A stretch of 64,000 bases of DNA from the NCBI RefSeq assembly GCF_001677475.2, contig NZ_CP015229.1; one strand, 5' to 3'. Position numbers: made by a program. Source of the DNA: Escherichia coli (GTDB taxonomy: Bacteria; Pseudomonadota; Gammaproteobacteria; Enterobacterales; Enterobacteriaceae). Positions 17,801 to 20,800 of the stretch are shown one piece after another (position 1 is the first letter of the stretch; each line of letters opens with the position of its first letter).

Positions 17801-20800
17801 TATTGTAAGTGTGATTCTTAATTATCATAATAAACATTAAGTTAACCATATCCATACAAAATACAATGGTTTATGTTCTTCAAAATAAATAAACAAAATC
17901 ATTCATAAATTTACACATCACTTAAATTCGCCTGTTTTCATACTTTTTTCTTTATTTTTTAAGCAACTGGAAGTTAATCCACTGCAATCTATTGTTATAT
18001 TGAATCAAATCAATGAAAATAGATGTTGTCACATCAGTGATATTTTATTTTTGTATGATATTTAATGTAATTGACTGATAGCCACATCACTTCGTGTGTG
18101 GTTATCTTTTTATCTATTGGGCTAATTTTGACCGATTGAGGTTTCCTATAGGTATTCATTCAAATATATCTCAGTTAGGAGTACTACTATTGTGAGTAAA
18201 CGTCGTTATCTTACCGGTAAAGAAGTTCAGGCCATGATGCAGGCGGTTTGTTACGGGGCAACGGGAGCCAGAGATTATTGTCTTATTCTGTTGGCATATC
18301 GGCATGGGATGCGTATTAGTGAACTGCTTGATCTGCATTATCAGGATCTTGACCTTAATGAAGGTCGAATAAATATTCGCCGACTGAAGAACGGATTTTC
18401 TACCGTTCACCCGTTACGTTTTGATGAGCGTGAAGCCGTGGAACGCTGGACCCAGGAACGTGCTAACTGGAAAGGCGCTGACCGGACCGACGCTATATTT
18501 ATTTCTCGCCGCGGGAGTCGGCTTTCTCGCCAGCAGGCCTATCGCATTATTCGCGATGCCGGTATTGAAGCTGGAACCGTAACGCAGACTCATCCTCATA
18601 TGTTAAGGCATGCTTGTGGTTATGAACTGGCGGAGCGTGGTGCAGATACCCGTTTAATACAGGATTATCTCGGGCATCGAAATATTCGCCATACTGTGCG
18701 TTATACCGCCAGTAATGCTGCTCGTTTTGCCGGATTATGGGAAAGAAATAATCTCATAAACGAAAAATTAAAAAGAGAAGAGGTTTGATTTAACTTATTG
18801 ATAATAAAGTTAAAAAGCAAATAAATACAAGACAATTGGGGCCAAACTGTCCATATCATAAATAAGTTACGTATTTTTTCTCAAGCATAAAAATATTAAA
18901 AAACGACAAAAAGCATCTAACTGTTTGATATGTAAATTATTTCTCTTGTAAATTAATTTCACATCACCTCCGCTATATGTAAAGCTAACGTTTCTGTGGC
19001 TCGACGCCTCTTCCTCATTCTTCTCTCCAAAAGCCACCTCATGCAATATAAAAATCTATAAATAAAGATAACAATAGAATATTAAGCCAACAAATAAACT
19101 GAAAAAGTTTGTGCGCGATGCTTTCCTCTATAAGTCAAAATGGCCCCAAATGTTTCATCTTTTGGGGGAAAACTGTGCAGTGTTGGCAGTCAAACTCGTT
19201 GACAAAACAAAGTGTACAGAACGACTGCCCATGTCGATTTAGAAATAGTTTTTTTTAAAGGAAAGCAGCATGAAAATTAAAACTCTGGCAATCGTTGTTC
19301 TGTCGGCTCTGTCCCTCAGTTCTACAGCGGCTCTGGCCGCTGCCACGACGGTAAATGGTGGGACCGTTCACTTTAAAGGAGAAGTTGTTAACGCCGCTTG
19401 CGCAGTTGATGCAGGCTCTGTTGATCAAACCGTTCAGTTAGGACAGGTTCGTACCGCATCGCTGGCACAGGACGGAGCAACCAGTTCTGCTGTCGGTTTT
19501 AACATTCAGCTGAATGATTGCGATACCAATGTTGCATCAAAAGCCGCTGTTGCCTTTTTAGGTACGGCGATTGATGCGACTCATACCAACGTTCTGGCTC
19601 TGCAGAGTTCTGCTGCAGGTAGTGCAACAAAAGTTGGTGTGCAGATCCTGGACAGAACGGGTGCTGCGCTGGCGCTGGACGGTGCGACATTTAGTGCACA
19701 AACAACCCTGAATAACGGTACCAACACCATTCCGTTCCAGGCGCGTTATTATGCAATCGGCGAGGCAACCCCTGGCGCAGCTAATGCGGATGCGACCTTC
19801 AAGGTTCAGTATCAATAACCTACCCAGGTTCAGGGACGTCATTACGGGCAGGGATGCCCACCCTTGTGCGATAAAAATAACGATGAAAAGGAAAAGATTA
19901 TTTCTGTTAGCGTCGTTGCTGCCAATGTTTGCTCTGGCCGGAAATAAATGGAATACCACGCTGCCCGGCGGAAATATGCAATTTCAGGGCGTCATTATTG
20001 CGGAAACTTGCCGGATTGAAGCCGGTGATAAACAAATGACGGTCAATATGGGGCAAATCAGCAGTAACCGGTTTCATGCGGTAGGGGAAGATAGCGCACC
20101 GGTACCTTTTGTTATTCATTTACGGGAATGTAGCACGGTGGTGAGTGAACGTGTGGGTGTGGCGTTTCACGGTGTCGCGGATGGTAAAAATCCGGATGTG
20201 CTTTCCGTGGGAGAGGGGCCAGGGATAGCCACTAATATTGGCGTAGCGTTGTTTGATGATGAAGGAAACCTCGTACCGATTAATCGTCCTCCAGCAAACT
20301 GGAAACGGCTTTACTCAGGCTCTACTTCGCTACATTTCATCGCCAAATATCGTGCTACCGGGCGTCGGGTTACTGGCGGCATCGCCAATGCCCAGGCCTG
20401 GTTCTCTTTAACCTATCAGTAATTGTTCAGCAGATAATGTGATAACAGGAACAGGACAGTGAGTAATAAAAACGTCAATGTAAGGAAATCGCAGGAAATA
20501 ACATTCTGCTTGCTGGCAGGTATCCTGATGTTCATGGCAATGATGGTTGCCGGACGCGCTGAAGCGGGAGTGGCCTTAGGTGCGACTCGCGTAATTTATC
20601 CGGCAGGGCAAAAACAAGTGCAACTTGCCGTGACAAATAATGATGAAAATAGCACCTATTTAATTCAATCATGGGTAGAAAATGCCGATGGTGTAAAGGA
20701 TGGTCGTTTTATCGTGACGCCACCTCTGTTTGCGATGAAGGGAAAAAAAGAGAATACCTTGCGTATTCTTGATGCAACAAATAACCAATTGCCACAGGAT

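Follow-up and report, generated by a model that had tools for sequence, protein, structure and literature searches.

Gene organization of the fim locus

The window, by which is meant the entire 64-kb stretch of E. coli DNA under investigation, carries on its plus strand the genes for two tyrosine-type DNA invertases, namely fimB (17112-17714), whose product flips the fimS element in both directions, and fimE (18192-18788), whose product acts mainly in the ON to OFF direction. The encoded proteins, 200 and 198 amino acid residues in length, match the NCBIfam models NF007370 (458 bits) and NF007371 (452 bits), respectively, over their full lengths and with scores well in excess of the cut-off, as does the fimA product described below with its own model, and both are identical to their K-12 counterparts. 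No further Fim-type recombinase besides this pair is encoded in the window. The first gene of the switch-controlled operon, fimA (19270-19818, plus strand; NCBIfam NF011741, 180 bits), codes for the major subunit, which consists of 182 residues and shows nine amino acid differences relative to the K-12 protein. The genes fimI, fimC, fimD, fimF, fimG, and fimH follow on the same strand from 19883 to 25865 with all reading frames intact. FimI, FimC, FimD, FimF, and FimG were assigned with NCBIfam models, and the name fimH was taken from the annotation of a colinear genome (L013). A mechanically called open reading frame of 223 codons (19751-20422), which runs over the end of fimA, represents an upstream extension of fimI; both the family model and the annotations of colinear genomes fit a FimI protein of 179 residues starting near 19883.

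Several smaller features surround fimA. The 35-nucleotide small RNA FimR2, as annotated in MG1655, is found unchanged at 19829-19863, just 3' of the gene. An Rfam scan of positions 15000-27000 yielded no family above threshold. In the fimA leader, at 19249, there is one extra T in the T-run located 5' of the ribosome-binding site as compared to all seven genomes examined alongside. Position 19201 is a G, which gives TTGACA, and the same G is present in all of the compared strains except MG1655, where the hexamer reads TTTACA.

Farther upstream, the tRNA-Leu(CAA) gene leuX (8256-8340) is followed by a short island from 9018 to 12618, at the position where K-12 has its KpLE2 element. The leuX gene has been reported to be necessary for efficient fimB translation. 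The island encodes a restriction endonuclease of the type that binds phosphorothioated DNA (NF045808, 438 bits) as well as a 682-residue protein without a family match. On the other side of the fim genes, the minus strand from 37796 to 43036 encodes a 1745-residue inverse autotransporter adhesin of the intimin/invasin family, whose match to the IatC N-terminal model lies below the cut-off. The colinear O157:H7 genes are annotated as iatD, and espX6 is located nearby.

Architecture of the invertible element

Positioned between the full-length fimE and fimA genes are two perfect 9-bp inverted repeats. The left repeat, IRL, has the sequence TTGGGGCCA and extends from 18836 to 18844, whereas the right repeat, IRR, at 19141-19149, is its exact reverse complement, TGGCCCCAA. 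Measured from repeat to repeat, the element spans 314 bp (18836-19149), precisely as described in an earlier note on this DNA. The recombination crossover takes place at these repeats, and the sequence of IRL is that given in the literature (PMC8777976). Within the 64-kb window the 9-mer TTGGGGCCA occurs only twice, as IRL and IRR. A pair of 9-bp repeats is not, however, significant in itself, for the window contains 42 perfect pairs lying 250-400 bp apart as compared to 37 ± 7 in shuffled sequences. The identity of the element was therefore argued from its context and from homology.

The DNA between fimE and fimA, switch included, can be aligned end to end and colinearly with that of K-12 MG1655 with a handful of differences. 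Inside the 314 bp there are six substitutions, which corresponds to ∼98% identity with the MG1655 fimS. Moreover, fimS has been described as a 314-bp element flanked by the 9-bp repeats 5'-TTGGGGCCA (PMC8777976). The gene setting, the colinearity with MG1655, and the agreement in repeat and length all bear out the proposal of the earlier note that this element is fimS. Indeed, it is almost certainly the canonical E. coli fim switch, an invertible promoter cassette, in phase OFF.

A consensus scan of positions 18700-19300 revealed three sigma-70-like sites. This number represents no excess over chance (2.3 ± 1.5) in such AT-rich DNA. The best of the three, matching the consensus at 10 of 12 positions, is located on the minus strand at 18884..18855 and is composed of a -35 hexamer, TTGAGA (18884..18879), an 18-bp spacer, and a -10 hexamer, TATGAT (18860..18855). 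A gap of 10 bp separates the -10 hexamer from the left repeat, such that the transcript would begin just inside the repeat and proceed toward fimE. The site thus provides a putative outward-reading sigma-70 promoter at one end of fimS. Its placement beside the left repeat, on the minus strand and directed toward fimE, agrees with what had been noted previously, although the spacer, given then as 17 bp, measures 18 bp when counted directly. Neither hexamer varies among eight aligned strains. The only promoter-like match on the plus strand, TTGATA-18-TAAATT, is found at 18925-18954; it agrees with the consensus at 9 of 12 positions and is separated from the right repeat by ∼190 bp. The TTGAGA/TATGAT pair is the one that we take to be the fimA promoter, PfimA (Olsen & Klemm 1994); literature searches for the hexamers or for a mapped fimA start in print gave nothing usable.

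The predicted accessory sites are arranged in the order expected for a fim switch. A match to the IHF consensus, WATCAANNNNTTR, lies on the minus strand at 18791..18803, just outside the left repeat, in the IHF-1 position. A second predicted match, also on the minus strand, is situated inside the switch at 18918..18930 in the IHF-2 position. According to the published description, IHF-1 adjoins IRL and IHF-2 falls within fimS (PMC9993118). Near the other end of the element, the core of a probable Fis site, overlapping LRP-2, was located at 19087..19095 as the wild-type counterpart of the bases altered by the mutagenic primer FBSFOR2. The 135-bp product of primers BSFORBIO and BSREVBIO is colinear with the window at 19034-19168. 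A single BstUI site (CGCG) at 19114..19117, in its published position between LRP-2 and IRR, serves as an asymmetric marker of orientation. The element would thus be equipped with an IHF site flanking IRL, an internal IHF site, and Lrp and Fis sites near its opposite end.

The Fis site is known to be located at the promoter-distal end of fimS (PMC9993118). In the window, this end adjoins IRR on the fimA side, as expected of the OFF phase. Given that both the Fis/LRP-2 core and the BstUI site abut the right repeat, the promoter must be at the left end. The assignment of TTGAGA/TATGAT as the likely PfimA is thus supported by its match to the consensus, by its conservation, by its correspondence to the fimA promoter of Olsen & Klemm (1994), and by the placement of the Fis site.

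Orientation of the switch

The orientation was assessed by means of a switch assay performed in silico with primers OL20 and OL4 followed by digestion with BstUI (PMC9993118). In the published assay, OFF gives rise to fragments of 539 and 187 bp and ON to fragments of 433 and 293 bp (PMC9993118). The window yields 539 and 189 bp, and is thereby classed as OFF, whereas the same sequence after computational flipping yields the ON pattern of 293 and 435 bp. The MG1655 (540 and 188 bp) and UTI89 (539 and 188 bp) references are likewise classed as OFF. E. coli 13E0780, in which the element naturally lies in the opposite orientation, gives 293 and 434 bp, or ON. In this strain the plus strand carries TTGAGA-18-TATGAT, which lies 10 bp short of the right repeat, faces fimA, and is located 139 bp 5' of the fimA ATG.

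The UTI89 reference genome has been stated to have fimS in the OFF orientation (PMC6458436). Its fimS differs from that of the window at 12 positions when the two are aligned colinearly and at 215 positions when one of them is flipped. Taken together, the BstUI pattern, the colinearity with UTI89, and the natural ON genome of 13E0780 agree on an OFF orientation for the fimS of the window. The earlier note had arrived at the same phase and had proposed a comparison with ON and OFF references; as can be seen, the window matches the OFF references MG1655 and UTI89 and not the ON genome 13E0780. The claim that the switch was OFF in the sequenced population holds in the sense that the consensus, or majority path, of the assembly is OFF; this path does not give the composition of the culture.

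Substitutions within fimS

When seven complete E. coli genomes were aligned with the window, none of them had its fimS substitutions 19008 A>C, 19033 A>G, or 19132 G>A. The first two are common to the window and two draft assemblies, L009 and L011 (described below). The third is located 9 bp inward of the right repeat; of all the sequences examined, only the window and two further drafts, L010 and L012, have 19132A. The change converts GAGTC to AAGTC, and with it the only HinfI site in 18760-19270 is lost. This loss is the only demonstrated consequence of 19132 G>A. It is improbable that the substitution alters recombinase binding and shifts the ON/OFF bias of the lineage; the lineage-wide 19008C and 19033G might add to such a shift.

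As a consequence of the missing site, HinfI digestion as commonly used to determine orientation would be uninformative for this strain, and BstUI or SnaBI, the latter with a site at 18868-18873, should be employed instead. HinfI was also considered as a second orientation test in silico and was rejected, since the window contains no site for it in 18760-19270. In addition, the published HinfI fragment sizes, when taken without the primer sequences, fit either orientation of MG1655 and are thus unusable for this purpose.

Orientation in other genomes

A census of complete E. coli genomes was conducted with an 801-bp region of the window, or a synthetic flipped version of it, as the query. A fimS match was observed in 4716 of the 5426 genomes. 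The number colinear with the window over at least 80% of the query was 4459, and 250 showed colinearity with its flipped counterpart; of the 4709 genomes that could be classified, 94.7% are thus OFF and 5.3% are ON. From these counts it is clear that OFF is the norm and that the public record directly demonstrates the inversion of fimS. In the window, fimS adopts the commonest orientation of a textbook phase-variation switch, the biology of which is already known.

The lineage of the window is absent from the RefSeq complete E. coli genomes. Identity to the closest of these reaches 98.6% in the 801-bp region and 98.0-98.1% across 10-30 kb; across 36-60 kb it peaks at 96.5%, with the O157:H7/O55:H7 lineage. 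An exact-protein look-up of the FimA allele led to draft assemblies. One of these, L010 (GCA_016118665.1), is 99.985% identical to the window over 6549 bp of the fim region, with the same OFF orientation and the same FimA allele. In L011 (GCA_037967675.1), which has the same fimA allele, fimS is flipped to ON, and the contig runs out 86 bp past the left repeat. The contig of L012 (GCA_031341795.3), which matches the window at 100% identity, begins at 18846, one base inside the left repeat. The stretches in question are positions 1-404 of L011 and 1-40 of L012, in the region of window 18750-19153. Breaks at or near a repeat, as in L011 and L012, are what a mixed ON/OFF culture gives in short-read assemblies.

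The remaining draft, L009 (GCA_018428365.1), displays in positions 974-2883 the order fimE, flipped fimS, inverted fimE together with the 3' end of fimB, a second flipped fimS, and fimA. A real inverted duplication of fimE/fimS was considered and rejected, as the novel junction carries an N; a scaffolding error probably accounts for the arrangement. Species-representative genomes were also scanned for exact patterns. A 47-mer covering the private substitutions had no match, and a 51-mer from the promoter end matched only a mis-binned metagenome contig (L008).

Assessment of alternative explanations

For the switch to be ON in reality, the functional fimA promoter would have to reside on the plus strand near the right repeat, with the minus-strand match being incidental. 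The element does contain the weak 9/12 site at 18925-18954, and promoter-like matches in the region are no commoner than chance. Its distance of ∼190 bp from the right repeat, however, speaks against it, and since it is the sole match on the plus strand, the layout that the earlier note had named as fatal to the OFF call, namely a fimA promoter close to the right repeat on the plus strand, is not that of the window. Moreover, the published BstUI assay places the window in the OFF class, the window is colinear with the UTI89 reference, for which an OFF state has been stated, and in 13E0780 the ON fragments accompany a plus-strand promoter 10 bp from the right repeat. The probability that the switch is actually ON is thus negligible. 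Another proposal is that the assembled orientation reflects the choice of the assembler in a substantially mixed ON/OFF population, in which case it would say little of the phase of the culture. Both orientations of fimS are known in sequenced cultures (PMC6458436), and the contigs of L011 and L012 break at or near the left repeat. The window, on the other hand, is unbroken through the switch and for tens of kilobases on either side, most cultures are as a rule OFF in their majority, an orientation shared by 4459 of the 4709 classifiable complete genomes, and the dominance of FimE keeps most cells OFF according to the literature. A minority ON fraction is to be expected in any event and does not contradict an OFF consensus. 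A substantially mixed culture is therefore regarded as unlikely, albeit the most credible of the alternatives, and the orientation of the assembly reports only the consensus path rather than the ON/OFF composition of the population.

The OFF orientation could also have arisen from genetic locking, as in the 16-bp fimS deletion of O157:H7 or the fimB insertion of ST131. The three switch substitutions absent from the seven aligned complete genomes might be viewed in this light, particularly 19132 G>A, which falls where recombinase half-sites are described. Against this stand the unreduced length of 314 bp, the perfection of the repeats, the retention of 18901-18916, which is the segment missing in the O157:H7-type locking deletion, and the presence of both IHF consensus matches. 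FimB and FimE match their K-12 counterparts residue for residue over their whole length. No feature known to lock the switch, whether the 16-bp fimS deletion or a disrupted fimB or fimE, is present. Furthermore, L011, a close relative with the same fimA allele and both 19008C and 19033G, was assembled ON, and L012, with 19132A, breaks one base inside the left repeat as a mixed-orientation sample would. A locked switch is accordingly deemed highly improbable. Since the two recombinases, the two repeats, and the matches to accessory sites are all intact, the OFF switch should still be reversible. We infer from these intact parts that it is invertible rather than locked.

Mechanistic implications

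In the scheme outlined here, the activity of the promoter, the binding of proteins, the function of the terminator, and the switching itself are ascribed to this strain on the basis of the literature. FimB and FimE would exchange strands within the 9-bp repeats and thereby flip the 314-bp segment with the assistance of IHF, Lrp, and Fis. Cleavage and religation are reported to occur within the 9-bp repeats, with IHF, Lrp, Fis, and H-NS shaping the substrate and the directional bias (PMC9993118). Because FimE, which functions mainly in the ON to OFF direction, is dominant, the majority of cells are OFF (PMC2647292, PMC11316696). The cassette is expected to carry the sole promoter for fimAICDFGH at one of its ends. 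Here the promoter, on the minus strand and 10 bp inside the left repeat, would direct transcription toward fimE, which would leave the operon without a promoter, that is, in phase OFF with no type 1 fimbriae. In published work on the OFF orientation, PfimA is cut off from fimA, and a Rho-dependent terminator in fimS shortens and destabilizes the fimE mRNA, whereas in the ON orientation the transcription of fimE reads across the switch (PMC2647292). By presenting this terminator to the fimE transcript, the OFF orientation observed in the window would be predicted to result in less FimE.

The anatomy of the element, its orientation, the intactness of its parts, and its natural occurrence in both orientations all emerge directly from the present analysis. 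In this strain the type 1 fimbrial system is intact and looks capable of switching, and the assembly should be read as "consensus OFF" and not as "non-fimbriate." Beyond correct annotation the importance of the finding is small, given that fimS is also OFF in the K-12 and UTI89 references and in ∼95% of complete E. coli genomes.

Comparison with known switches

The closest parallel is provided by the fimS of K-12 MG1655 (NC_000913.3, between fimE b4313 and fimA b4314), with which the element of the window shares the repeats, the length of 314 bp, the flanking genes, the orientation, and the BstUI marker. It differs from it by the six substitutions, among them 19132 G>A with its loss of the HinfI site, by small indels and substitutions in the flanks, and a FimA protein nine amino acids apart. 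The fimS of the uropathogenic strain UTI89 is colinear with that of the window, with the promoter similarly placed on the minus strand by the left repeat, but it is ∼4% divergent and is accompanied by another fimA allele.

The locked-OFF fimS of O157:H7 (L006, ATCC 43888) occupies the same locus and has the same repeats and the same OFF orientation as that of the window. Its length is only 298 bp, however, as it is without the 16 bp equivalent to 18901-18916 of the window. The deletion lies 17-32 bp upstream of the -35 hexamer, and O157:H7-type genomes are assembled OFF. More distant relatives are the hyxS and ipuS elements of uropathogenic E. coli. Like fimS, each is a promoter cassette positioned between inverted repeats and flipped by FimB/FimE-like recombinases (PMC6083910). 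They are distinguished from fimS by repeats of 16 and 7 bp, by the different genes that they control, and by their locations elsewhere in the genome (PMC6083910).
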